Shown piece after piece: positions 1,841 to 14,712 of a stretch of DNA of 43,071 nucleotides; within the stretch, counting starts at the first letter, position 1; every line of letters starts with the position of its first letter. The notes below the pieces were generated by a model. It saw only the letters and a program-made list of their open reading frames with translations. It did not search any database and was not told the origin of the DNA. The stretch comes from Helicobacteraceae bacterium (GTDB lineage: Bacteria > Campylobacterota > Campylobacteria > Campylobacterales > Sulfurimonadaceae). The stretch lies in contig JALSUN010000042.1 in NCBI GenBank assembly GCA_027061425.1, forward strand, positions 1 to 43,071, read 5' to 3'. The translations under genes and the position numbers were made by a program.

Positions 1841-2767
1841 ATGGAAAAGTCATACGACAAGACACTTTCAAGATTGATCATGATCTTGCACAAGCTTGAT
1901 CAAAATGAACGACCAACACAACAAGAGTTGGCTGATGAATTTAATGTCAGTCTTCGCACCATCCAGCGTGACATCAACCGTCTACACTACTTCTCTATAG
2001 AGAAAAACAGTGATGGTACCTTGCAGTTTGTCAAAGGCTTTTCACTGAAAAGAACCAGTTTTGAAGAGGATGAAATGATGTTGATGTATCTCTCACTCTC
2101 TATGGTGACCGATGTTAATTCCGAGTTCAACAAGTCTGCCAACAGTTTGATCTCTAAACTCCTGCTGCCCAATGTCTCTTCTCCCTATTTGGTCAAGCAA
2201 GATCCGTTTGAACCTATAGATATGGATTCAAAATTGATGAATGAGATAGAGAATGCGATAGAACAACAGCGTATCTCTACGCTAAAGTTAAAGAGAGATG
2301 TGGTTGAAGTTGAGCCCTATAAGGTAGTCAGTTTTGATGAGATCTGGTATCTTTTTGCTAAAGAGGTAAAGAGTCAAAAGGTGAAGACCTATTTCATCAG
2401 TGATATCAAGGCTATTGAGACTTCACAGAGAGTCTACAAACTAGAACACAATATTGATGAAACATTAGAAAACATACATGCTGCGTGTTTTGAAGATGGC
2501 GTGGCATACGATGTGACCATAAAGGTGCTTGAACCCATAGCCCATTACTTTAAACGTAAAAAGCATCTGGCCTCTCAAGAGATTTTAGAAGAGAGAGAAG
2601 ATGGTTCTTTGATCATTCGCTTTGTGGTGAGTCATGATGAAGAGGTTGATAATATCATTAAATCCTGGTTGCCTCATATAGAAGTCTTGACGCCTGAACG
2701 CTTTCGCAAGCAGATTCTTGAAGAGCTTGAGGAGTATGTCACACTGTTGAAGTCGTCGGTTGAGTAA
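1841..2767 (+). CDS. WYL-domain transcriptional regulator (winged HTH + WYL + WCX; YafY/PafBC/DriD-like)
   Basis: HTH TQQELADEFNVSLRTIQRDI; WYL core VEPYKVVSFDEIWYLFA; WCX-like C-terminus IIKSWLPHIEVLTPERFRKQI. ATG at 1841 follows GGAG (1831-1834), preferred over GTG 1829. Confidence 0.93.
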   Translation: MEKSYDKTLSRLIMILHKLDQNERPTQQELADEFNVSLRTIQRDINRLHYFSIEKNSDGTLQFVKGFSLKRTSFEEDEMMLMYLSLSMVTDVNSEFNKSANSLISKLLLPNVSSPYLVKQDPFEPIDMDSKLMNEIENAIEQQRISTLKLKRDVVEVEPYKVVSFDEIWYLFAKEVKSQKVKTYFISDIKAIETSQRVYKLEHNIDETLENIHAACFEDGVAYDVTIKVLEPIAHYFKRKKHLASQEILEEREDGSLIIRFVVSHDEEVDNIIKSWLPHIEVLTPERFRKQILEELEEYVTLLKSSVE

Positions 2768-2846
2768 AATGGTTAATGTGTATGTAAAAAGTTGATATCT
2801 TAAAGTTACTTTAGGAATTGATTTCAGTTTAATAAGTTATATTACG

Positions 2847-2868
2847 CCGCGACACCACGCTGTCGTGG
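2847..2868. promoter_or_regulatory. Inverted repeat CCGCGACA-N6-TGTCGTGG, candidate WYL-regulator binding site
   Basis: Arms 2847-2854 and 2861-2868 match 7/8 with a perfect CGACA/TGTCG core; GC-rich patch in an AT-rich spacer directly downstream of the WYL gene. Confidence 0.8.
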
Positions 2869-2882
2869 AGAGTATATATAAT
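2861..2882 (+). promoter_or_regulatory. Sigma70 promoter TGTCGT-N10-TATAAT (PafBC-like -26/-10 architecture) upstream of the envelope cluster
   Basis: TGTCGT 2861-2866, 10-nt spacer GGAGAGTATA, TATAAT 2877-2882; SD AAGGAGG just before ATG 2909. Confidence 0.75.
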
Positions 2883-2908
2883 GACATCAGAAAGATTAAG
2901 GAGGAAAG

Positions 2909-3451
2909 ATGAAAGTGCTACTGTTTATGTTGGTCTTGTTGAGTTCAGTATGGGCTGACAAAGTAGTGACCAAAACAGCATTTATAAATGCATCCGATGC
3001 AAAAGGTAAGAGTTTAGTGCAGGTGCGTGAGACACTTTTGATAAGAGCAAAACGTGCAGCGGCTTCAGAGATCTTTGGTGATTATATTAACTCGTCAACG
3101 GTTATAGAGAGTGGTAAGCTTATCTCAGATGAGATCAACTCTATTGTTAACGGGGTTATTCATATTAAGGGTGATCCTCAGTATAGCAATGGAAAGAACT
3201 TTGGTGATATGCAAGTACGTGCAACAATGTATGCAACAGATCGTGAGATGGTTCAGGCCAAAAAACGTTTAGAAAAGATTGTTGCACAACAAAGAGCCGC
3301 AAAGCGTCAAGCGCATAAAGCGGCCCCTGTTGTAACACCAAAGGCTAAAAAACGTGTGAACTGTAGTGACAATCTGCCTAGTGACCCTGTCAAAAGACAG
3401 CAAGCCGTGGCAGAGTGTGAGATGAATAAATTCGATGCAGATTTCGAATAA
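2909..3451 (+). CDS. Secreted protein with LPP20/FlgT-N-like domain
   Basis: Signal peptide ending SSVWA; helix LLIRAKRAAASEIFGDYINSSTVIESGKLISDEINSIVNGVI resembles the FlgT-N/LPP20 pattern; C-terminal Cys pair; strong SD. Confidence 0.6.
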   Translation: MKVLLFMLVLLSSVWADKVVTKTAFINASDAKGKSLVQVRETLLIRAKRAAASEIFGDYINSSTVIESGKLISDEINSIVNGVIHIKGDPQYSNGKNFGDMQVRATMYATDREMVQAKKRLEKIVAQQRAAKRQAHKAAPVVTPKAKKRVNCSDNLPSDPVKRQQAVAECEMNKFDADFE

Positions 3452-3476
3452 TTTAAACCAAAAAAAAAGGAAAAAC

Positions 3477-4067
3477 ATGACAATGATTAAAAAAGGGATG
3501 CTTATTTCACTAAGCGCAATGGTAGTACTAGGAGTTACAGGATGTGGTGGAGACACTCCAAAACCAGCAGAAGAAGAGGGCGATTTTAGATGTCACAAAG
3601 AGGGCGTTTTAGCTCCTGAATGGGCATGTACACCTGACGTAGCAGGCGCATTTGCAGATGTAGGTTCAGCACCACTTTCAGCAGCAGGTGAAGGTTTCTC
3701 TCGTCGTGAAGCATTAGCAAACGCACGCTCTAACTTGGCACAACAAGTAGAGTCTAAAGTCAAAGACAAAGTAGAGACTTTTGTTAGAGGTACAGGTATT
3801 GGTAGTGGCGAGAGTGTTGACAAGGTAACCACTCAGGTCTCTAAGCAGGTTGCACAAGTGACACTTAAAGGCTCTAAGCAGGTTAAATACTGGCAAAATC
3901 CTAAAACTAACACGATCTATGTAGAAGTTGCAGTTCCTGAGTCTTCTATCAACGAAGAGGCAAAAGCAGCAGTGAAGACAAGCCTCAAAAATGATGATGC
4001 TATGTGGCAGCAGTTCCAGTCTAAAAATGCTCTTGAGTCATTAGACAAAGAGTTCCCAACTGACTAA
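3477..4067 (+). CDS. LPP20-family lipoprotein
   Basis: Lipobox VTGC; APEW...VGSA...RREALANARSNLAQQV...IYVEVAV pattern as in Helicobacter Lpp20. SD AAGGA 3467-3471 supports ATG 3477. Confidence 0.85.
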   Translation: MTMIKKGMLISLSAMVVLGVTGCGGDTPKPAEEEGDFRCHKEGVLAPEWACTPDVAGAFADVGSAPLSAAGEGFSRREALANARSNLAQQVESKVKDKVETFVRGTGIGSGESVDKVTTQVSKQVAQVTLKGSKQVKYWQNPKTNTIYVEVAVPESSINEEAKAAVKTSLKNDDAMWQQFQSKNALESLDKEFPTD

Positions 4068-4471
4068 TGGTAACTAAGAGCTTATTAGCACTTTTAGTGT
4101 CATTGATGTTCTTAGCCTGTAGTGCTACAGAGCCGAGTGTTGCAGCAGGTGAAAAACCCTCTTGGATCTTTGATCCAAATCAGGGTGGTGTTGTGGGTGC
4201 TGTAGGACAGTGTGGTGTGCACTATAAAGGTAAAGCGATGCAACGCAGACTTGCTACAAGTCGTGCTATAGAAGAGCTTGCTATGCAAGGTGACATCACC
4301 GTTGACTCTGAGATGTCTGTTTCAACAGAAGTCTCGGGCCAACATGTGAAAAACAGAAGTAAAAGTAAAACATTTGTGAGTGCAAAAGGGGTGCCTGTGC
4401 ACGCTTATATCGAAGAGATGTATTTTGACAAAAAGAGTGAAACACTCTATGTATGGATGATTAGAGACTAG
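4067..4471 (+). CDS. LPP20-like lipoprotein
   Basis: Lipobox FLAC; KPSWIFDP...GAVG...QRRLATSRAIEELAMQ...ETLYVWM; TAATG coupling to the upstream gene. Confidence 0.78.
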   Translation: MVTKSLLALLVSLMFLACSATEPSVAAGEKPSWIFDPNQGGVVGAVGQCGVHYKGKAMQRRLATSRAIEELAMQGDITVDSEMSVSTEVSGQHVKNRSKSKTFVSAKGVPVHAYIEEMYFDKKSETLYVWMIRD

Positions 4472-4500
4472 CTTAGGCTAGGCTCTATTATGATCTGTTT

Positions 4501-4529
4501 TCTGCTTTTAGCAAAGCGCTAAAAGTAGA
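4501..4529 (+). other. Intra-cluster stem-loop (mRNA stabiliser, processing site or attenuator candidate)
   Basis: TCTGCTTTTAGC-aaagc-GCTAAAAGTAGA, 12-bp stem with one G-U pair and no U-tract, enclosed by AGAGACT (4463-4469)/AGTCTCT (4543-4549). Confidence 0.6.
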
Positions 4530-4571
4530 TAAGAGATAATAAAGTCTCTGAAAATGAAAGAGGTATTAAAA

Positions 4572-5771
4572 ATGAAAAAGAAGATAGTCATAGCGGCATT
4601 TTTAGGTTTGAGTCTGTCCAACCTTCATGCCGGTGCATTTGAAGATTATGCCAAGCAGCAAAACAGTGGTATAGAAAAAGAGAAAGCATCTTTTGAAGCG
4701 CATAAAGCCTCTGAGTTGGCCGCATATAAAAAGTATCAAGAAGACATTAACAAGGCTTATAGTGACTATAAAAAAGAGGTCTCTAAGTATTGGCAAGACC
4801 CAAAAATGTCTACGAAAAAAGAGTGGGTCAGTTATGCAAAAGATAAAAAAACGAGAACTGCAGTAGATTTTGAGGCAGAGACGATCACCATAGAGACTTT
4901 GGCTAAAAGTCCTAAAGATGCGGCATCAAAACTACAAGTCTCTTTGGCTAAAGTCGTCACTGAGACAGTCGGTCAGGCTGAAAAGTCTGATGCTCTCATT
5001 CAAAAAATTGCCAAGATTGATGCTAAGAGCGACGCTGTAAAACCTAAAAAAGAGAACAACGACCCTTTACTCTCTTCTACCATATTTGCGAAAGTACCCT
5101 CTCTAGCGTCTATAAAGAAATATGTTAATGAGAAGATCAATAAAAAAACAGTAAAAAAGAAAAGTTCTAAAGTTAAAAACATAAAGGTCTACAGTGTTAC
5201 GGTAAAGTTACCAAAAAACAGTATGCAAAAACGCTCAAAAGTCTATTTACCTGAAGTGAAGAAAAATGCAGAACGTTGGGAACTTCCTATGGCGCTTATC
5301 TTTGCCATCATGCATACTGAAAGTAACTTCAACCCTATGGCCAAGTCCCATGTCCCTGCTTATGGTCTCATGCAACTGGTACCTTGGAGTGGGGCTCAAG
5401 ACAGTTATAACTTTGTCTATAAAGTGAAGAAAAAACCTTCTGCTACATACCTATACAATGCAGAAAACAACATGGAACTGGGCTCTGCCTATCTTCACCT
5501 GCAGTACTACAAGTATATGAAGAAGATTAAAAATCCTACAAGTCGTCTCTACTGTACGATTGCTGCCTATAATACTGGGGCTGGTAATGTGGCTTATGCT
5601 TGGTTAGGTAACTATAACATCTACAAGGCTGCTGCAAAGATCAATGAGATGAGCTCTGATGAGGTCTATCACCATCTTATCGCAAACCTAAAGTATGATG
5701 AGGCCCGTAACTACTTGAAAAAAGTGAACAAAAAGATGGACCAATATCACAAACTCTATGGAGATATCTAA
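4572..5771 (+). CDS. mltC: MltC-like lytic murein transglycosylase (DUF3393-type N-domain + SLT/GH23)
   Basis: Catalytic motifs HTESNFNP, AYGLMQL, NMELGSAYL, AAYNTGAGNV; WVSY...RTAVDFE N-domain; Sec signal without lipobox. Start 4572 (GAGG upstream); 4554 is an alternative. Confidence 0.88.
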   Translation: MKKKIVIAAFLGLSLSNLHAGAFEDYAKQQNSGIEKEKASFEAHKASELAAYKKYQEDINKAYSDYKKEVSKYWQDPKMSTKKEWVSYAKDKKTRTAVDFEAETITIETLAKSPKDAASKLQVSLAKVVTETVGQAEKSDALIQKIAKIDAKSDAVKPKKENNDPLLSSTIFAKVPSLASIKKYVNEKINKKTVKKKSSKVKNIKVYSVTVKLPKNSMQKRSKVYLPEVKKNAERWELPMALIFAIMHTESNFNPMAKSHVPAYGLMQLVPWSGAQDSYNFVYKVKKKPSATYLYNAENNMELGSAYLHLQYYKYMKKIKNPTSRLYCTIAAYNTGAGNVAYAWLGNYNIYKAAAKINEMSSDEVYHHLIANLKYDEARNYLKKVNKKMDQYHKLYGDI

Positions 5772-5772
5772 G

Positions 5773-6708
5773 ATGAAACTGCACCAAGTATTATTTTTAA
5801 CAGTGGGATTAAGTGCCTCTCTATTTGCCAGAGATGCGATAGATGTCAGTGGTCCTTGTATGATCAACTGGACGCAAGGACTCATCGGTTGTGAAGGTGA
5901 GTCTGCAAGAGGACAAGAGAGTTTTGCAGCTAAGCGTGTTGCTGTTGTTGTTGCACAGCGCAACCTTCTTGAGGTGATCAAAGGGGTACGTATAGACTCC
6001 CAGACCACGATCCAAGATGGACTTGTAGGCAGTGATGTTATTAAAAGTCGTGTTAACGGTGTGATACGTGGGGCGCAAGTCTTAAATAACACCTATGATG
6101 AATCAAAAGGTTCAGCGAAGGCACGTGTACAGTTACGTATGGGTCAAGATCTTCTCAAAGCACTCTTGAGTGATCCGACGAAGTTGAGTTGGAATGAGAA
6201 AATTGATGCATTATGGAACAGTTTCTCCATTATTCCTTCTGCTATGGCCAGCAGTTACGCTTATGGAGAGAAGAAGACTTTAGAAAAACTGTTAGCCGAT
6301 ATGAAAGTCTCAAAGAACCGTGCGGGTGCTGCGCAGATAGAGAGCATACTTCAAGGTATGGATACCAAGTTTACAGGAATGTTGATAGATGTCAGTCATG
6401 TTAATGGCTTTGAAAAAGCGTTAATCGTACGTTTGGTTGATAAAAATGGTAAAGAGTTATACCCCTCAGGTAAACTCAGTAAACGTATGTTACAAAAACG
6501 TAATACTTCTGTAGGCTATGTCTTTGGTCACGGAGATGCCCTTCGAAACATCAGAGTTTTTAACAAGCCGTTAGAACTTGAAGTGTCTAAAGTGTACCGT
6601 CGCAAACATTCAAATATCGTGTTAAATGATGATCAGGTCGCAGCATTTAAAAAACTTGACCCTGAAATTTTTAAAAATGCGAAAATTGTACTTCTGTTAG
6701 GAAAATAG
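5773..6708 (+). CDS. Secreted LPP20-domain protein with conserved C-terminal domain
   Basis: Signal peptide; INWTQGLI...AKRVAVVVAQRNLLEVIKGVRIDSQTT...VNGVIRGAQV; C-domain FTGMLIDV...RLVDKNGKELY. Confidence 0.75.
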   Translation: MKLHQVLFLTVGLSASLFARDAIDVSGPCMINWTQGLIGCEGESARGQESFAAKRVAVVVAQRNLLEVIKGVRIDSQTTIQDGLVGSDVIKSRVNGVIRGAQVLNNTYDESKGSAKARVQLRMGQDLLKALLSDPTKLSWNEKIDALWNSFSIIPSAMASSYAYGEKKTLEKLLADMKVSKNRAGAAQIESILQGMDTKFTGMLIDVSHVNGFEKALIVRLVDKNGKELYPSGKLSKRMLQKRNTSVGYVFGHGDALRNIRVFNKPLELEVSKVYRRKHSNIVLNDDQVAAFKKLDPEIFKNAKIVLLLGK

Positions 6709-7896
6709 ATGCGTTTAATATTTTTACTTTTACTGCTCACCCGTTTATATGCAGATGCCTTCACTCCCTATTTAGAAAGTTCTGATAAAGCTGAAGTCTA
6801 TGCTCAAGAACTTTTAGATGCAGAAAAAAGTGAAGAAGCACTCGCATTTATAGAACAGGCGAGAGAGAAATACAGTAATAATGCCAAAATTATGGTGTTT
6901 GGTGGCGACGCTGCTGTAGGTATGGATGATCTTGATCTGGCCAAGCAGTATTATCAAGCAGCTATTAATCTTAGTAGTGAAGAGGAACTAGAGGCTATCA
7001 TTCAAGATCATATAGAAGGTGGCTACATTAAAGAAGCGTCTATTTTGTTGGATGATGCAAAAGGGGTATACCCTAAAAATGCGGTACTTTTAGTCTTTAG
7101 TGGTCGTACAGCTTATGAGATGGGTGATCTGACAAGCGCAAGAAACAACTATTTACTCGCACTAGAACTTGACCCAAACAACGAGATAGCTGCAGCAAAC
7201 ATCAATCAAATAGAGTCACAGGCGGAAGCGACTGAGAATAAAGTTGTCACGGGTGTCTTGCAGTATCTTGGTGATAAAGGTCTTGACTTTTTGATGATAT
7301 TTCTTGCCTTTTTAGGCGGAGAGTTGCTCGCGAAAAAGCAGGTGGTTTGTGAATCTAGAAACATTGTTAACACAGTGAACCGATACTTAAATAAAAAATA
7401 TGGCAAGACGTACACATCACAATATAAAGGATACGATAGACCATTTTGTCTGTTTGTTACTTTGTTGAATTTTATGACGGTGGCAGGTGCGATCATGGTA
7501 GTTTGGCTCTTTTTGACTATGACTACGGAGCTCTTCTCTTCTCTTTTATATATTGACTTGACGGTGATGACTGAAGATGATCTTTTGTCTTTTAGTGGAA
7601 TTTCATTTTTACTTATTTTACTTGCTGTGCTGTTCTCAAGTTTCTTAATGAGTTTTTTAAAAGGGTTTAGAGATGTGGATGAGCAGTTTTTCAATGCTGT
7701 TGAACTTTTACAAAACAGTGCACTTGAGGGACAGTTTACAGTGCTAAGAGAAGCCTGCTCTTTAATTACCACATCAAAATACGCTGAAGCTGAAACAGCC
7801 TGTGTGTTGGACCAATGTTACAGTGCTGAAGCGAAAGAGATTATTACTAAAGCGTTTGATGACTTGAACAAAAAAAAGGAAAAAGATGAAGCTTAG
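6709..7896 (+). CDS. TPR-repeat protein with three predicted transmembrane helices
   Basis: Signal peptide; TPR units (GDLTSARNNYLLALELDPNNEIA); hydrophobic segments FLMIFLAFLGG, FCLFVTLLNFMTVAGAIMVVWLFL, FSGISFLLILLAVLFSSFLM. Confidence 0.8.
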   Translation: MRLIFLLLLLTRLYADAFTPYLESSDKAEVYAQELLDAEKSEEALAFIEQAREKYSNNAKIMVFGGDAAVGMDDLDLAKQYYQAAINLSSEEELEAIIQDHIEGGYIKEASILLDDAKGVYPKNAVLLVFSGRTAYEMGDLTSARNNYLLALELDPNNEIAAANINQIESQAEATENKVVTGVLQYLGDKGLDFLMIFLAFLGGELLAKKQVVCESRNIVNTVNRYLNKKYGKTYTSQYKGYDRPFCLFVTLLNFMTVAGAIMVVWLFLTMTTELFSSLLYIDLTVMTEDDLLSFSGISFLLILLAVLFSSFLMSFLKGFRDVDEQFFNAVELLQNSALEGQFTVLREACSLITTSKYAEAETACVLDQCYSAEAKEIITKAFDDLNKKKEKDEA

Positions 7897-9823
7897 TACC
7901 GTACTCCTTCCTGTATTACTCCTCTTAAGTCTACAGTTACAGGCTAAGAGTTATAAAGTGTGTGCAAATTCGTATGCTAATGCCAAACTTGAACTTGCGG
8001 CTATGATCAATGCAACGGTTAACAATGTGCAATCCTCACATGTTAAAAGTGAGCGCCAAAAGGGTGAAGAGAGTGTCACTTCAACAGTGGAACAGATAAA
8101 CTCTATAGAGAGTCATCTTGACTTAGTTGATATGGAACTCTATAAAAAAGGTGGGCAAAAGTGTGTTAAAATTGAGAAAGAGGCACAGGTAAAACATACA
8201 AAAGTGCTCTTAACAAAGACAAAAACATTTATTGTAAAAAACCTTCCAAACAGCGGTGAGAAAAAAGTACAAGTGCTCCACGAATGGTTAGAGGTCATTG
8301 TCACGACACAACAGATGCTTAACGTTTTTGGAGAAGGCATTACGATAGATGAGAAGCTTGAACTCACCAACAAGTATAAAAAACTTAGTGACTTGTTGAC
8401 TAAGACTGAGCTGAACATCGCCTCTTTAGTCTTTAAGGGATGTGGTAGCGATAAAAAAGCTGCACAAAAGGCACTTGATCAGACTATTTTTACACATAAC
8501 AGACAAGAGAAGAAAAAAGGCTTTTTCTCATCCATGACCTCATGGGTGAGCAGTGATGATACGCCTTTGAAGGTCACACTTTTTGAGCCATACATCACTT
8601 ATAAAAAAGCTGGGCGACAAGAATGTGCTTATATCGTGAAGTCAAAACTCTTAGCACTCTCACAAGCGATGTACAGTAAGAGTGATGGTTTCAAAATAAC
8701 GCTGCTCTCTAAGACACCTAAAAAAAGAGTGGAAACGGTTGATAACTGGTTACAGCATCTTGATGTCACTTATGATCTTATGAAAGTCTATCCTGAAGTT
8801 TTTAAGCCCAGCCAACTACAAAAGATCGAAGCGTTAAAAGTGGCGTTGATGAAAGAGCGTAAGAGTATTATCCCTCAGTCCATTATATTTCATGTGACGG
8901 GTGCAGAAAAATCTGTGATCATACTTAATGGAGAACCGGTTAAAGTAAACAGACCTGTTTATCTGCCTAAAGGTAGTTATGCCTACAGCGTAAAATCTGA
9001 TGGGTTTTGTGTGAAAAAAGATGATGTGAGTTTAGATGCCTTTGAAGACAAGGTAATAGAGATAGACTTTAGCGGTTATGCGTATCCTACCGTTCTGTTT
9101 GTCAGTGATGTCAATTTTGATGCTATGGTAGATGGTATCAGAATAACACCAAACATAAGACAAAGTATCAAAAAATGTTCTCAGGAAGTGCCTTACTTAG
9201 TAAAGTTCAATGGACAGAGCTATCAAGGTACTCTAGACCTTGATCCAGGAGATACCATTACTAAAAACTTTGCCTTCTTAAATGCCCAGGAACTGGCTAT
9301 TATATCGGACGCAAAGACTAAAAAATTTAAAGTTTCCAGTGACGAAAAAATCTCGGAGCGTTTGTCCTCTTATGACAGTGAAAAGTTGACCTTCTCTGTG
9401 GTGAATCAACCTACAAGTGGCAATTTAGAGTTAGACAAAAGTGGTCATTTTATCTACACTCCAGACAAGAAATTTTCAGGAAAAGTAAGTTTTGATTATA
9501 TCGTTGATAGTGAAAACAAAAAGAGTTCTCCTAAAGTTGCTGTCATCGAAGTGGTAGGTACTAAAGTCGTAAAAGCTGCAGCAGTGCCGGTTGTTGTCAA
9601 GGAAGTTAAAAAAGAGATACCAAAGGTAGAAAAAGAAAAGAAAGTACAAAAGGAAGAGAAAGTAGCAGTTAAAAGCAAGAAAAAGCCAGATTTTGATGTA
9701 GCGAAGTTTGAAGCATTCTTATCCGCACGGCTTAAAGCAAAAGATATGACGACCTTAAAAGAGGCACAAAAACGCTTTCCGGAAGCTTTTGATGTCTGGA
9801 TGAAAAAGGTTCGTGGAAAGTAG
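7886..9823 (+). CDS. Secreted multidomain protein: duplicated Cys-containing N-terminal module, PEGA-like region, cadherin/Ig-like (Big_9-type) domain
   Basis: Signal peptide; PEGA-like ILNGEPV...LPKGSYAYSVKSDGF; Ig-like VVNQPTSGNLELDKSGHFIYTPDKKFSGKVSFDYIV; Lys/Glu/Val-rich linker and a short helical tail. Confidence 0.7.
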   Translation: MKLSTVLLPVLLLLSLQLQAKSYKVCANSYANAKLELAAMINATVNNVQSSHVKSERQKGEESVTSTVEQINSIESHLDLVDMELYKKGGQKCVKIEKEAQVKHTKVLLTKTKTFIVKNLPNSGEKKVQVLHEWLEVIVTTQQMLNVFGEGITIDEKLELTNKYKKLSDLLTKTELNIASLVFKGCGSDKKAAQKALDQTIFTHNRQEKKKGFFSSMTSWVSSDDTPLKVTLFEPYITYKKAGRQECAYIVKSKLLALSQAMYSKSDGFKITLLSKTPKKRVETVDNWLQHLDVTYDLMKVYPEVFKPSQLQKIEALKVALMKERKSIIPQSIIFHVTGAEKSVIILNGEPVKVNRPVYLPKGSYAYSVKSDGFCVKKDDVSLDAFEDKVIEIDFSGYAYPTVLFVSDVNFDAMVDGIRITPNIRQSIKKCSQEVPYLVKFNGQSYQGTLDLDPGDTITKNFAFLNAQELAIISDAKTKKFKVSSDEKISERLSSYDSEKLTFSVVNQPTSGNLELDKSGHFIYTPDKKFSGKVSFDYIVDSENKKSSPKVAVIEVVGTKVVKAAAVPVVVKEVKKEIPKVEKEKKVQKEEKVAVKSKKKPDFDVAKFEAFLSARLKAKDMTTLKEAQKRFPEAFDVWMKKVRGK

Positions 9824-9826
9824 GCT

Positions 9827-9850
9827 ACAAGGCACTTTTTAGTGTTTTGT
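9827..9850 (+). other. Stem-loop between cluster modules
   Basis: ACAAGGCACT-tttt-AGTGTTTTGT (10 bp with two G-U pairs) immediately after the stop at 9823. Confidence 0.45.
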
Positions 9851-9895
9851 TAGAGAGTGTATTGTAAAATAACAAAATAAATGAGATAAGGATTA

Positions 9896-10855
9896 GTGAT
9901 GAAAAAAGTAGGTTTAAGTATGACGATGTTAGCTGTTGTGAGTTTGCTCACAACAGGTTGTCTCTCTACGGATGAAAATGGAAAAGATAACAACTCAAGT
10001 GATGAAAATGGTGTTCCAAGTGGTAAGGTAACTGAAAAGTCCAGTAGTAATGATCTTTATGGTGAAGCACAGTTAATAGGGTTTGAAGATAATATGTTTT
10101 CTGTCAAGGGAAGTGCTAACTCTAGTGACGATGTAGAAGACTGGTACGCCTTTACTGCTCCTGAAAAAGGTCAGTATGCATGTGGACTAAAATATGATTC
10201 TGGAAATGAGTTGACGATTAAGATCTACCAGCAGGGCAATTATGATGTAGGTGGCAATGATGGAGGAAGATATACCTATAGTGGGCATATCCCAGATGCT
10301 GGTTATAAAGAAGTAAACTATCCGGCAAGCAGTACCTTGGCGTTTAGTACAATTAATGGTGAAATTGCAAAAGGAAGCAAATCTTATATCAGAGTGATTG
10401 CTGATACTACAGGTGGAAATACCGCGTCTTATACCCTTGACTGCTTTTCACCAACTGTATATAAAGATGCTGTTGAGACGGGTGATGTGACCGAAGATAA
10501 GACTTTAATGAACAGTTACCATAGATTGGCATTACCTATAAAGTTTGACTCTAATACATCAATCGTTATTCATGGCGAGGTCAACTCAGATACTGACAAA
10601 GATGATTATTATAAGTTTACTACAAGTGAAGCAGGTGATTACAATATCACGATGACGGGTTCAGCAGGTATTGATATTGATCTCTCTCTTTACAATCTTG
10701 ACGAAACAACACATGGTAGTTTCAATAATAGTAATAGTGCAGATGCTCAGGGAAGCTTTACCGCTGTTAAAAATGGAAAGTACTATCTCCGTGTTAATGG
10801 GTACAGTACAGGTGGAGCTACAGCGCAGTATACAGTGCATATCTTTAAGCCATAA
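9896..10855 (+). CDS. Lipoprotein with two PPC (pre-peptidase C-terminal)-like beta-sandwich domains
   Basis: Lipobox TTGC; repeats DDVEDWYAFTAPEKGQY...SYIRV and DTDKDDYYKFTTSEAGDYNITM...DIDLSLYN...GKYYLRVNGY. Start GTG 9896 or ATG 9899. Confidence 0.72.
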   Translation: MMKKVGLSMTMLAVVSLLTTGCLSTDENGKDNNSSDENGVPSGKVTEKSSSNDLYGEAQLIGFEDNMFSVKGSANSSDDVEDWYAFTAPEKGQYACGLKYDSGNELTIKIYQQGNYDVGGNDGGRYTYSGHIPDAGYKEVNYPASSTLAFSTINGEIAKGSKSYIRVIADTTGGNTASYTLDCFSPTVYKDAVETGDVTEDKTLMNSYHRLALPIKFDSNTSIVIHGEVNSDTDKDDYYKFTTSEAGDYNITMTGSAGIDIDLSLYNLDETTHGSFNNSNSADAQGSFTAVKNGKYYLRVNGYSTGGATAQYTVHIFKP

Positions 10856-10891
10856 TCGTCTCACGTGTGTAAAATAAAAGGAATAGAAAAT

Positions 10892-11809
10892 ATGAAAAAA
10901 ATGTTATTTATAGGGCTTTTGAGTTTAGGATTTATGTCTGTTCATGCAACAGAAATAGAGGTACAGAGTTCGGGTGTTGATCCTCAAGAAGCTGAGGACA
11001 ATGCAAAAAAACTTGCAGTCGAAAAATATCAGTCTCAATTGATGAAAAACATAGACGCCTGTAAAAGTATAGATACAAATTTCGAGATAGATATGGACGA
11101 CTATGATATTTCTGCACTCTCACGAGATAATACAGCTACGACAGCAAATGGGTTTAACGCAACATACCGTTTTGATGTGGAAGCCAATGACGGTGTAGAT
11201 GAAAAATTAGATAAAGCGTGTCAAGAGAAGAGTGCTGAGATTAAAGCAGCACAACTTGAGGCTGAAAGAGAAAGAAGAGAAGCAAAAAAAAGTGAAAAAG
11301 AGTGGAATGAGACTAAAAACTCTATTAATGACTTTGGAAGTCGTTTTAATATAGGTGCTGAAATCTATGGTCTGCTTGGTTATGGCGCAAATGGTTATTT
11401 TGAGTATCGACACAACGAAATTTTTTCAATTTCTGCTATTGGTGGTTACAGTGCTGCGTACAATAATTTTCCAACAGTAGAAGATCCTTCTAAAAAAAGT
11501 TCAAAACTCTCATTAGAGACATTAAGTGCAGGTGTTGAGGTGAGACTTCTATTTGTGTATCTGGCATATGAACAGCTTTTTGATTATAAACTAGAAAGTG
11601 GTTTTAACGAAATCAATACACCTACAAATGCAATAAGTATCGGTCTGTTAGTACCCTTAGACACAAAAATGGCATTTCAGACAAGAGAAACACCAAGACT
11701 TGAATATGGAATTTACTATAAAAGATTTAATGATAAGTTTACCTACAACGGAGAAGAATACAGCGACTCCGATATATTTGGATTAGCGCTTCGTGTTCGA
11801 ATCTATTAA
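10892..11809 (+). CDS. Exported protein: FlgT-N/LPP20-like N-domain, coiled coil, candidate C-terminal outer-membrane beta-barrel
   Basis: Signal peptide ending SVHA; SSGVDPQEAEDNAKKLAVEK; EAERERREAKK coil; alternating aromatic strands and terminal GLALRVRIY resembling a beta-signal. Confidence 0.6.
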   Translation: MKKMLFIGLLSLGFMSVHATEIEVQSSGVDPQEAEDNAKKLAVEKYQSQLMKNIDACKSIDTNFEIDMDDYDISALSRDNTATTANGFNATYRFDVEANDGVDEKLDKACQEKSAEIKAAQLEAERERREAKKSEKEWNETKNSINDFGSRFNIGAEIYGLLGYGANGYFEYRHNEIFSISAIGGYSAAYNNFPTVEDPSKKSSKLSLETLSAGVEVRLLFVYLAYEQLFDYKLESGFNEINTPTNAISIGLLVPLDTKMAFQTRETPRLEYGIYYKRFNDKFTYNGEEYSDSDIFGLALRVRIY

Positions 11810-13598
11810 AAAATTTGTACCGTTTCTTGTAACCATTCTCTTAGTACAGAGCCTTCATGCTGGTGATGTTGAGTTTGTCTGGAAGAAGCGTACTGTTGAT
11901 ACAGATTTCAAAAAAACAGCGAAACCAATGCAAGCGGTAAACAATGAGGTCGTAGAAGACCTTACCCACTATTTTGAGCCAAGACGTCCTCTGGATGTTA
12001 ATGCCTTAATGCCTAAAGAGATCGCGCCACCAAAAGCACCCCCTCGTGTCAAAAAACCAAAGCTTCCCAAACAGATAGAGTTTGTTCAAGGCAAGTATGA
12101 ACCTAAAGATGAGTATGAAGCGCGTGTCAACCGTTTAACTCAAAAGTATAATGCTGAAGTTGAAGAACAACGCAGATGGTATATTTCTGCAGTAGAGTCT
12201 AGAAATCAGCGTATAGAGAGAAAAAATGCCGACTACAAGAAAAAGGTCGAAGAGAGAAATCATCAAGTATTACTACTTCAAGAACGTGTCAATAATGATT
12301 ATAAAAAAATAGAAAAAGAGCAAAAAGAGAAAAAACATAAAGTAGAAAGTCGTTTGAGTATATTTTACAAAAATGCATTTAAAAAATACTATCAAAACCC
12401 GAAGATCCTCTCTACAGATTATTTTGTCAATGATGAGATCATGCGTGTAAAGTTAGGCTCATCAGTTGACAACTTTACGGAAACTCTTGAGTTTAAGATG
12501 CCTGCACATGACGCACAAAAGTTTGATCAATCTTTACCAAAAGTAAAAACATATGTTCACTTTAAAGTTAAAAGTGATATTGATAAAAGAGATATTAGTA
12601 TTGGTCTAGATCATGTTGTTTTTAAACTTAACGGTGAAGAGTATGTCGCCTCTCTGAGTAGAGCTGAACGAAAACGCTACATGTTAAAAAACAGCATTAA
12701 GCTGAAGAAAACTGCAGAAATAAAACAGAGCGAGAAGATGCTTGCATTACAAAATGCAAACAAAGGTATTGCAACTCAAAATATCAAGACAGAATCTTAC
12801 GAATTTGCAGTACAGACCAATACTAAAAATGATATTTTAGATGATCTTAAAGCTCAAAAAAGTGCAAAGATCAAAAAGTCAAATTGGCTACTTGTAGTTG
12901 GTATAGAAAAATATCTCAATACAGATGATATCTCATATAGTCGTAAAAGTGCTGAGACCTATACTAAGGTCATTCAAAAGTTGATGGGTGTTAGTGAAGG
13001 GCACACTATGAGTATTGTGGATGAGGGTGCTACATCAGCGCAACTTAAACATAAGATAGATGCTATTCTCTCACGTGTTAAAAAAGGTGATACCATCTAC
13101 TTTTATTACTCTGGACATGGTGTTCCCGTACCTTCAGAGAAAAATGAGCCTTATATGTTGCCGTCAGATGTTTATCCAGCTTCAATACAAGAGTACTCTT
13201 ACTTTAAGTTAAAAAACTTGTATAAAAAGTTGACAGACTCAAAAGCAGGAAAAGTAGTAGCTGTAGTTGATAGTTGTTTTAGTGGTTCAACAGATGGCGT
13301 GAGTAATATAAAAGGCGTTGCAGCAACTGTACTTGTTCCTAAAAAAGTATCGAGCTACGACAAAAAGAGAATGGTGATCATAGCAGCAGGAAAAGATTCT
13401 CAATATTCCAACAAATTTGATGAGAAACAGCAACGTCTTTTTAGTTATTACATTATGAGAGCACTGCTTGACAAGAAACGAAAAGTCAACAGTGTCTATA
13501 GTGATGCTGAGGAAAAAGTTGAAGAGACCTCACAAGATGTTAAAGGTCTGAGTAAACAGACTCCTGTTGTTATGGGTAATTCAAAGTTGTCATTTTGA
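11793..13598 (+). CDS. Caspase-family (peptidase C14) protease with signal peptide and long coiled-coil N-terminus
   Basis: WLLVVGIEKY; catalytic His FYYSGHG; catalytic Cys VVDSCFSG; FSYYIMRAL; QTPV tail; signal-like N-terminus FVPFLVTILLVQSLHA; GTG start overlapping the upstream gene. Confidence 0.9.
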   Translation: MFESIKKFVPFLVTILLVQSLHAGDVEFVWKKRTVDTDFKKTAKPMQAVNNEVVEDLTHYFEPRRPLDVNALMPKEIAPPKAPPRVKKPKLPKQIEFVQGKYEPKDEYEARVNRLTQKYNAEVEEQRRWYISAVESRNQRIERKNADYKKKVEERNHQVLLLQERVNNDYKKIEKEQKEKKHKVESRLSIFYKNAFKKYYQNPKILSTDYFVNDEIMRVKLGSSVDNFTETLEFKMPAHDAQKFDQSLPKVKTYVHFKVKSDIDKRDISIGLDHVVFKLNGEEYVASLSRAERKRYMLKNSIKLKKTAEIKQSEKMLALQNANKGIATQNIKTESYEFAVQTNTKNDILDDLKAQKSAKIKKSNWLLVVGIEKYLNTDDISYSRKSAETYTKVIQKLMGVSEGHTMSIVDEGATSAQLKHKIDAILSRVKKGDTIYFYYSGHGVPVPSEKNEPYMLPSDVYPASIQEYSYFKLKNLYKKLTDSKAGKVVAVVDSCFSGSTDGVSNIKGVAATVLVPKKVSSYDKKRMVIIAAGKDSQYSNKFDEKQQRLFSYYIMRALLDKKRKVNSVYSDAEEKVEETSQDVKGLSKQTPVVMGNSKLSF

Positions 13599-14629
13599 TA
13601 TATAAAAACTTCTTTGTACTGTTGATGCTCACAAGTATCCCTCTCCTTAGTAGTGACAATTATCCTCAATGGTATTTGAGCTTACCTAACAATAATGACA
13701 ATGTCTATATAGGTTATGGTGATGGAAAGTCCATGGGTGAAGCAAGAGCCAATGCCCGATCAAATGTTGCCTCACAAATAAAAGTTAAAATTAATGAAAA
13801 ATATAACAAAAGTGAAAGACTCGTAAACAGTACCTATAATAAAGACATATCAAGAACAGTTAATGAACAGATAGATGTAGAGCTTATAGGGCTTAAAGAA
13901 CTTAAAAGTGAAAAGCTTGATGGCACTTATTATATAGCAGTAAGTTTTGACAGAAGGTCACTCATTACAAAAATATCGATGAGTACGGGGATCGAAAATG
14001 GTTTACGTGTGATGGATGCTTCAAGTCCTTATCTTTACACAGAATTTTCTAAAGAGCTTAATGTAGTATTGAATTTTAAGAACAAGACTCCAAAGTATGA
14101 GGTCGTCTGGCTTAATGGTACGTACGTGTTACGTATTAATAATCATGAATTCCCTCTACTTACAGAAGATATTTCGAAATTTTTCTTTGTTTATGAAGAT
14201 CCAACTATCTTGCTTGATATCGTTCAACATAATGAAAACGGGACACGTGTTACAACCCGTATCCATGAAGGTGATTACTTTCATCTGACTGCTCATAGTA
14301 AAAAGAGCGGTTTTTTAACCCTATTAAATATTGATGAAGAGGGAAAAGTAAATGTTATGGTCGAAAACCATAAACTACAGTCAGGTATGGACTATACCTA
14401 TCCTGATTTAGATCTATACGAGGGACTGCAAACAGTTATTTTAGATAAGAGTAACAGTGCTATAGAGAGCTATTTGGCAGTACTCTGTAGAAATAAAATG
14501 AACTTTACTAAATATGACACTATAAATGAAGATATTAATGATAACACACATGCTAATAGATTTCCACATCTCTATCAAGATGTGAAACAGTGTCACTATA
14601 CATCTTTGATATTAAATACCAGCCATTAA
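13595..14629 (+). CDS. LPP20-domain + DUF4384-like protein
   Basis: YPQWY...YIGYGDG...EARANARSNVASQIKVKI (LPP20); GDYFHLTAHSKKSGFLTLLNIDEEGKVNVM...YTYPD...ESYLAVLC (DUF4384-like); TTGA overlap with the caspase stop. Confidence 0.78.
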   Translation: MIYKNFFVLLMLTSIPLLSSDNYPQWYLSLPNNNDNVYIGYGDGKSMGEARANARSNVASQIKVKINEKYNKSERLVNSTYNKDISRTVNEQIDVELIGLKELKSEKLDGTYYIAVSFDRRSLITKISMSTGIENGLRVMDASSPYLYTEFSKELNVVLNFKNKTPKYEVVWLNGTYVLRINNHEFPLLTEDISKFFFVYEDPTILLDIVQHNENGTRVTTRIHEGDYFHLTAHSKKSGFLTLLNIDEEGKVNVMVENHKLQSGMDYTYPDLDLYEGLQTVILDKSNSAIESYLAVLCRNKMNFTKYDTINEDINDNTHANRFPHLYQDVKQCHYTSLILNTSH

Positions 14630-14670: not shown

Positions 14671-14712
14671 GTAGATCGTAGAGATCTACATGGAGTGGGA
14701 TTGCTCCCTTTT
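14671..14712. terminator. Hairpins between convergent genes (candidate terminator)
   Basis: GTAGATC-gtaga-GATCTAC (14671-14689) and a weak GGAGTG-ggat-TGCTCC followed by CTTTT. Confidence 0.4.

Follow-up and report, generated by a model that had tools for sequence, protein, structure and literature searches.

DriD of Caulobacter and DdaA of Moraxellaceae are transcriptional activators of the WYL family that recognise short palindromes, DdaA binding CGWCA-N5-TGWCG and DriD CGAC-N7-GTCG (PMC12392091). DriD sites keep a constant distance to the -10 box; in the didA promoter as printed, the offset is 12 nucleotides (nt) (PMC13004042). Two arginines in the recognition helix are a criterion for activators of this type (PMC12392091); in PafB, the recognition-helix arginines are the proposed base readers (PMC6789036). 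The palindrome bound by SiwR is situated in the promoter of the neighbouring operon, between -35 and -10 (PMC10693628). The published WYL activators compared here have cytoplasmic repair, division or defence targets, and an all-exported target set would widen the role of the family. Here we describe such a candidate in a Sulfurimonadaceae genome (Helicobacteraceae bacterium, GCA_027061425.1), where a WYL regulator gene is followed by eleven genes, A to K, for predicted exported proteins. The stretch analysed, hereafter the window, comprises 43,071 nt of contig JALSUN010000042.1.

Several envelope proteins with folds relevant to this locus have been described. FlgP, FlgT, Lpp20 and dodecin share an SHS2-like fold; FlgP and FlgT form rings, and ring formation goes with an insert, a beta-hairpin, in proteins of this fold (PMC12222027). 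Domains D1-D2 of Tp0624 are a unit of unknown function, and the D1 scaffold also resembles the N-domain of MltC (PMC5104382). Helicobacter lipoprotein clusters with homologues of HP0018 and HP1457 have been tied to wall remodelling and wall hydrolases (PMC11394524). A match to "Lpp20" in PMC3417536 proved to be a Legionella locus tag, not the lipoprotein, and was discarded. Non-flagellar FlgT/FlgP/LPP20 clusters and Tp0624-like clusters recur widely, with no known job. No WYL-controlled cluster of this kind was found in the main texts of the open-licence literature; Campylobacterota entries may be present among the motif tables and WYL surveys that supplement PMC12392091. Both the regulator type and the folds are already known, and the cluster class is widespread and functionally uncharacterised. 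What is new in relation to this literature is the combination: an operator of DriD type that would drive a cluster of predicted exported proteins as part of a wider regulon.

The intergenic region between the WYL gene and A contains the palindrome GACA-N6-TGTC, then 12 nt, a TATAAT box and a ribosome-binding site ahead of A, an arrangement unreported in the sequence-only reading that preceded this study. Palindrome and -10 box are kept in the related loci L031, L074 and L154, the spacer being N6 in the window and N5 in L031. In the 23 loci carrying adjacent E and F genes, intergenic GACA-N5/6-TGTC occurs 13 times against 0.27 expected from dinucleotide shuffles; the 55 distant E-like loci yield a single copy (0.6 expected) and the 18 stand-alone MltC loci none (0.34 expected). 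Of 31 sites from 28 loci, 27 have TANNNT at offset 12 when either side is allowed; other offsets score 1-6, apart from the self-overlapping offset 14 with 12. When 20 WYL loci were fetched after this rule had been fixed, an A2/T6 hexamer lay at offset 12 for all 19 palindromes. Presence of the site also follows the regulator: of the 31 WYLs whose helix could be read (a truncated row was dropped), 19 have the second recognition-helix arginine, 14 of them with a site nearby, and 12 lack it, 1 of them with a site nearby. Whole-genome counts of sites against a backwards control were 8/2 in the window's own genome (G000, 82.8% complete), 18/3 in G004 and 4/0 in G002 (both 100% complete), 12/3 in G252, 3/2 in G623 and 0/2 in G001. 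A generic promoter scan found 33 promoters against 41 expected. The operator is not tied to one place in the cluster; it stands before A, before I, between F and D or after F, and L031 has a second one before I. Enrichment, kept 12-nt spacing and arginine tracking together support WYL activation well. The sequence-only reading had proposed WYL control, and this is supported by the conserved operator of DriD-like geometry and by the WYL genes that accompany E in 8 of 31 close loci, a proportion that becomes 8 of 13 once loci with less than 3.7 kb upstream are set aside. The WYL protein is predicted, with high confidence, to bind the palindrome and activate the operon.

The recognition helix of the window WYL, SLRTIQRD, keeps both arginines. 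Its profile match to DriD has an E-value of about 1e-3 only, and orthology is not claimed. In the alignment, R204, W206 and R207 of DriD correspond to K182, Y184 and F185; of the two arginines that bind single-stranded DNA (ssDNA), R204 has a lysine in its place and R207 is lost; DdaA, too, is without one ssDNA-binding arginine (PMC12392091). By way of the operator a WYL regulon can be charted in this lineage; LexA was looked for in the 82.8% complete genome of the window and not found.

The sequence-only reading took the eleven genes for one trans-envelope assembly. The comparison does not support one conserved machine, as the long form is seen only in the window and in L031, and elsewhere sub-modules recur. 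L031 is a ten-gene form without H, which marks H as accessory; L074 and L075 hold A-G, and I occurs only in the long form. The gene downstream of E is F in all 27 E loci with a visible downstream gene, out of 31 close E loci that include the duplicates L054/L095, L059/L083 and L074/L075. An A-like gene is present in 17 of the 31 and a lytic transglycosylase in 12 (MltC in 7, SpoIID in 5, no locus with both). Most E-F loci lack D and J. We argue from the exchange of MltC for SpoIID that wall cutting is the selected function. On these comparisons the conserved core is a Tp0624-like E followed by F, with FlgT/LPP20-fold partners and an exchangeable lytic transglycosylase.

E is rare. At an E-value <= 1e-12, 8 of 353 genomes of the family and 4 of 401 of the order carry it (G000 included); among 15 other members of the genus, E was found in one. 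By source names its close relatives come from Sulfurimonas, Arcobacter and Poseidonibacter; viral contigs gave no relative of E. The closest locus, in which D is 79% identical, belongs to a Sulfurimonadaceae genome. D-like (MltC-like) genes are present in 141 of 301 family genomes; of 20 such neighbourhoods fetched, none had E, F or WYL and two carried B- or C-like genes. Distant E-like genes (best 80 of 238 metagenome matches) sit with FlgT_N, CsgG/LpoB, DUF1425, DUF4476, caspase-TPR and DUF4384 genes, and caspase and DUF4384 recur beside E-like genes in L087, L117 and L119. G to K have few relatives, G forming a small family of 8 clusters. The cluster is a variant of the widespread, functionally uncharacterised non-flagellar FlgT/FlgP/LPP20 clusters. 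Larger clusters with SpoIID, SLH, DUF6844 and CsgG-FlgT proteins adjoin E-like genes at L063:47-12305 and L054:1-6789. G000 further contains two more exported caspase-like genes in tandem (C170:7937-11503) and a B paralogue (C179:3622-4287).

The structure model of E (mean predicted local distance difference test score 78) matches Tp0624 (Foldseek E-value 4e-7) and also HP1454 and FlgP (3e-3). The C-domain superposes on D2 of Tp0624 with Z 13.5 and a root-mean-square deviation of 2.2 over 111 residues; the N-domain is matched by HP1454 (Z 6.6), FlgT (Z 5.8), Tip-alpha and dodecin in a middling range of Z 5-7. The model places E among the SHS2-like folds, and profiles predict the same fold for A, B, C and K, hhalign linking A to E with 99%, B to C with 99.8%, and B to C and K with 99.8% or more. 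By sequence, no solved-structure relative of B was found. F is all-helical and matches TPR proteins only, with no usable match in the atlas; its residues D193, E205, C214 and C247 are invariant in 21 of 21 sequences. The E-F complex prediction scored 0.09 and was not used as evidence for or against.

The twelve open reading frames (ORFs) of the locus (Table 1) were correctly placed by the sequence-only reading, all on the forward strand. It had also described the WYL gene as followed by co-directional, mostly abutting or overlapping genes (2909-14629), each with an N-terminal export-type signal. Of the 10 junctions within A-K, 6 abut or overlap, the other four gaps being 25, 100, 72 and 36 nt, and an N-terminal hydrophobic stretch is present in 11 of 11 proteins (best 11-residue hydropathy 1.97-2.97, against 1.25 for WYL), as scored by a crude hydropathy and lipobox scan, not a signal-peptide predictor. 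A lipobox was found in 3 of 11, namely B, C and H. Most of the domains assigned earlier score above the Pfam cut-off: LPP20 (B, K), Mltc_N and SLT (D), TPR (F), Big_9 (G), PPC (H) and Peptidase_C14 (J). PEGA in G found no match and DUF4384 in K stayed below the cut-off (18.3 against 27 bits). Of three transmembrane helices claimed for F, the hydropathy scan gives two and the alignment alone suggests the third. The beta-barrel in I is no more than a lead, for which alternating strands, an aromatic residue at the C-terminus and scores of 0.87-0.89 in the atlas speak. The catalytic motifs ES, GLMQL and AYNTG are present in D. The operon has a GC content of 38% against 41% elsewhere in the window, its flanking genes differ between genomes, and no transfer RNA was found at the boundaries in the window or in 7 related loci. 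At 29-1300 of the window, a 137-aa ORF and an ORF at 448-1002 that runs into stops downstream have no family match. We take the latter to be alpha/beta-hydrolase-like and the two to be probably a decayed lipase-type gene pair.

Table 1. Features of the predicted WYL-controlled locus (window coordinates) and other operator-bearing loci; aa, amino acids.
Feature	Position	Strand	Description
WYL regulator	1841..2767	+	308 aa; winged helix-turn-helix (wHTH)-WYL-WCX; HTH_11, WYL and WCX above Pfam cut-offs
Palindromic operator	2849..2866	.	DriD/DdaA type, predicted WYL site; core GACA-N6-TGTC 2851-2864
-10 box TATAAT	2877..2882	+	12 nt past TGTC
A	2909..3451	+	180 aa; predicted exported; N-domain related to FlgT_N/SHS2-like N-domain of E
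B	3477..4067	+	196 aa; LPP20 lipoprotein
C	4067..4471	+	134 aa; lipoprotein, LPP20-like
D	4572..5771	+	399 aa; MltC-like lytic transglycosylase (Mltc_N + SLT), without lipobox
E	5758..6708	+	316 aa; predicted SHS2-like N-domain and Tp0624 D2-type C-domain; core gene
F	6709..7896	+	395 aa; TPRs, then 2-3 membrane helices, helical tail
G	7886..9823	+	645 aa; predicted exported; weak internal repeat, beta domains, Big_9
H	9896..10855	+	319 aa; lipoprotein, two PPC-like domains
I	10892..11809	+	305 aa; likely C-terminal outer-membrane beta-barrel
J	11793..13598	+	601 aa; predicted exported caspase-family protease (C14), His-Cys dyad motifs
K	13595..14629	+	344 aa; LPP20 domain, without lipobox, sub-threshold DUF4384
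Terminator-like hairpin	14692..14707	+	after K
Inositol monophosphatase	G000 C15:1602-2509		operator-bearing
Divergent pair, 117 aa and 803 aa	G000 C202:10055-12950		operator-bearing; no Pfam match
HD-domain gene	G000 C84:1530-3352		operator-bearing; beside second WYL
G252 operator island	G252:C1:1156472-1212070		L155, L181-L183

The operator marks more than this one operon. In G000, 5 of 8 full-geometry sites are intergenic and 3 lie inside genes. The intergenic sites belong to the A-K operon, an inositol monophosphatase gene and a divergent pair of unknown genes, and one neighbours a second WYL gene. Genes in L187, L182, L078 and L162 share 79-87% identity with the monophosphatase, those of L187 and L182 standing directly behind an operator. 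We rejected a genome-wide DNA-damage regulon in G000 (82.8% complete), as no repair gene was recognised behind the sites. All 12 sites of G252 fall within 53 kb ending 2 kb before a WYL of 60% identity. They precede genes for SPFH and ankyrin proteins, a B orthologue, the monophosphatase with a calcineurin-like phosphatase, and a McrB-like ATPase; the island also holds STAND NTPase (STAND-TPR), TIR, AAA-M41, LPP20 and TerB genes. Further operator loci in relatives include TerB, FGase, YbjN and TraG-like ATPases. Genes for type III CRISPR, Card1, CorA and SAVED adjoin the sister WYLs that have no operator. PADLOC found no clean defence system among the loci of operator and WYL relatives checked. 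Conflict genes behind the same operator suggest, by association only, an inducible defensive context.

Some of these loci have features of their own. L156, L157, L160, L165, L168 and L182 carry a gene for a TraG/VirD4-like ATPase of 460-580 aa. It frequently follows a divergent operator pair, and the proteins scanned there include no conjugation genes. At L163:7031-11324 and L169:7802-12659 a WYL gene stands by genes for a SAVED membrane protein, a 600-aa unknown protein and a MotA/MotB-like pair, an arrangement resembling a defence cassette. At a contig end, L186 (G004:C155:39653-43271) holds seven operators in 3.6 kb, surrounding a HEAT-repeat gene and a gene like flavin mononucleotide-dependent glutamate synthase.

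We propose that a WYL dimer would occupy GACA-N6-TGTC in the -35 place and activate the TATAAT promoter, as DriD does; sequence support for this step is strong, while binding itself is inferred. More tentatively, the ligand may be a single-stranded nucleic acid or a related nucleotide signalling DNA damage or invasion. A, B, C, E and K would then co-assemble as a scaffold under the outer membrane, held by the lipoproteins B, C and H and the barrel I and linked by E-F to the inner membrane. The folds point in this direction, and we lean slightly towards one assembly formed by the products. At the scaffold, the transglycosylase D may open glycan strands, and the protease J may process a periplasmic partner. 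The operon would act as the envelope arm of an inducible stress or conflict regulon and render a damaged or invaded cell more resistant. Eleven predicted exported proteins behind a WYL-type palindrome suggest a damage- or infection-induced envelope remodelling complex. We hold the chances to be even that the operon, by means of an inducible periplasmic scaffold, protectively remodels the wall when DNA is damaged or the cell is invaded. An unlikely, wider joint reading is that a Campylobacterota WYL subfamily runs an inducible conflict regulon replacing SOS, with the operon as its extracytoplasmic arm: an on-demand lattice of FlgP/FlgT fold, a wall-cutting enzyme, a periplasmic caspase and an ion-conducting F (invariant D193 and E205), the lattice blocking phage entry, predators or contact-dependent attack. 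If true, immunity at the envelope level would gain a new form, and a role could be given to the relatives of flagellar rings outside flagella.

Several observations weigh against protective remodelling under WYL control. The palindrome pattern was devised from the window, L031 and L052, and once these three are left out, the other 20 loci contribute 7 sites, of which 3 nearly duplicate sites of L052. The arginine comparison is not independent, because 8 of the 12 arginine-less WYLs form one clade. In L052 and L082 the order is WYL-E-F and the -10 box of the adjoining site points at a divergent gene, so that E-F may not be activated there. The window spacer is N6, whereas that of DdaA and DriD is N5; WYL is absent from 5 of the 13 E loci whose upstream DNA is long enough; and the second WYL of G000 (C84) could also read the site. 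R207A impairs DriD (PMC10853764) and the equivalent of Arg207 is Phe185 here, which makes ssDNA sensing uncertain. No recognised DNA-repair gene lies behind any of the 8 sites in the 82.8% complete G000. On the structural side, hhalign on thin alignments left an SHS2-like domain in G and I unsupported. Ring formation by proteins of FlgP/FlgT fold requires the insert and is, by analogy, a candidate property here.

Instead of protecting the cell, the operon might kill it: upon infection, the WYL would switch on the transglycosylase, the caspase-like protease and F, which break the envelope and abort infection. The catalytic motifs in D and J, the patchy spread of E, the relatives' islands in which operators accompany STAND NTPase, TIR, McrB-like ATPase and TerB genes, and the sister WYLs beside CRISPR and its companions would all fit. 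The CRISPR-linked WYLs are, however, the subgroup without the operator, D and J are missing from most E-F loci, and a few genes suffice for lysis, compared with five scaffold-fold proteins here. PADLOC 2.0 gave only generic WYL and caspase models and two weak unrelated matches, and no match to a named defence system. We consider such an inducible suicide improbable. Doubtful, too, is ordinary envelope maintenance of the Lpp20/LpoB/HP0018 kind, linking outer membrane and wall, with the WYL operator captured secondarily and tuning it only a little. MltC-like genes are common in the family, distant E-like genes keep company with FlgT_N, CsgG/LpoB and DUF1425 and show no operator enrichment, and the link of HP0018/HP1457 homologues to wall remodelling (PMC11394524) points the same way. 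Yet the operator recurs at different cluster positions, no LpoB or CsgG gene is in the operon, and a gene present in a single one of 15 other genomes of the genus is unlike a housekeeping gene.

A role in inducible export, either surface display of G and H (Ig-like, PPC) or effector secretion with an ATPase encoded elsewhere in the regulon, seems quite unlikely. Transglycosylases serve secretion systems, I is likely a barrel, and TraG/VirD4-like ATPase genes stand by WYL or operator in the six loci named above; but no such ATPase was found in G000 (82.8% complete), and I is small and confined to the long form. In line with the sequence-only reading, which recognised no named secretion system, Pfam and NCBIfam scans of the locus found no ATPase, secretin, pilin or tube genes, nor is there a CsgG among the eleven. 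Finally, a WYL-regulated island might have gathered unrelated exported accessory genes behind one promoter without one machine. The few relatives of G-K, the dispensable H, the differing flanks and the lower GC content speak for this; the constant E-F adjacency, the repeated partners (A-like, transglycosylase, caspase, DUF4384) and the shared fold speak against it, and we regard it as very improbable. An inducible, protective remodelling scaffold remains the reading we prefer. With a defined operator and activator, the function of the cluster becomes testable, as there is a promoter to watch and a regulator to delete.

Compared with the known systems, the window WYL resembles DriD and DdaA in its wHTH-WYL-WCX architecture, its two recognition-helix arginines and a CGACA/TGTCG-type palindrome in the -35 place, at the -10 distance of didA. 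It differs in the N6 spacer, in the replaced Arg207 equivalent and in its targets, which are exported envelope proteins and conflict-type genes instead of recA, uvr and didA. Like SiwR of Mycobacterium, which acts through a palindrome upstream of the adjacent operon, it would be a local WYL activator, but the targets of SiwR are two cytoplasmic DinB-like genes, and it depends on both WYL arginines. The E model matches the D1-D2 tandem of Treponema pallidum Tp0624 (PDB 5JIR), except that E ends after D2, has no OmpA-like D3 (no OmpA match) and is paired with a separate TPR membrane protein, F. The predicted SHS2-like fold of E, A, B, C and K is that of the FlgP/FlgT rings (Campylobacter basal disk, Vibrio H-ring); unlike these, the locus has no flagellar genes, and a flagellar role was rejected on finding neither FlgH nor FlgI in G000 (82.8% complete), G004 and G002. 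Non-flagellar FlgT/FlgP/CsgG clusters likewise place an E-like gene with FlgT_N/LPP20 partners away from flagellar genes, but the eleven proteins of the window have no CsgG/LpoB-fold Pfam match. The clusters around H. pylori Lpp20/HP1457 and C. jejuni cj0089-cj0091 share LPP20-domain lipoproteins, a TPR partner and a link to wall hydrolases. In contrast to them, the window operon is without LpoB, DUF1425 and CsgG genes (Pfam, 11 proteins) and adds a transglycosylase, a caspase, a membrane protein and the WYL operator.

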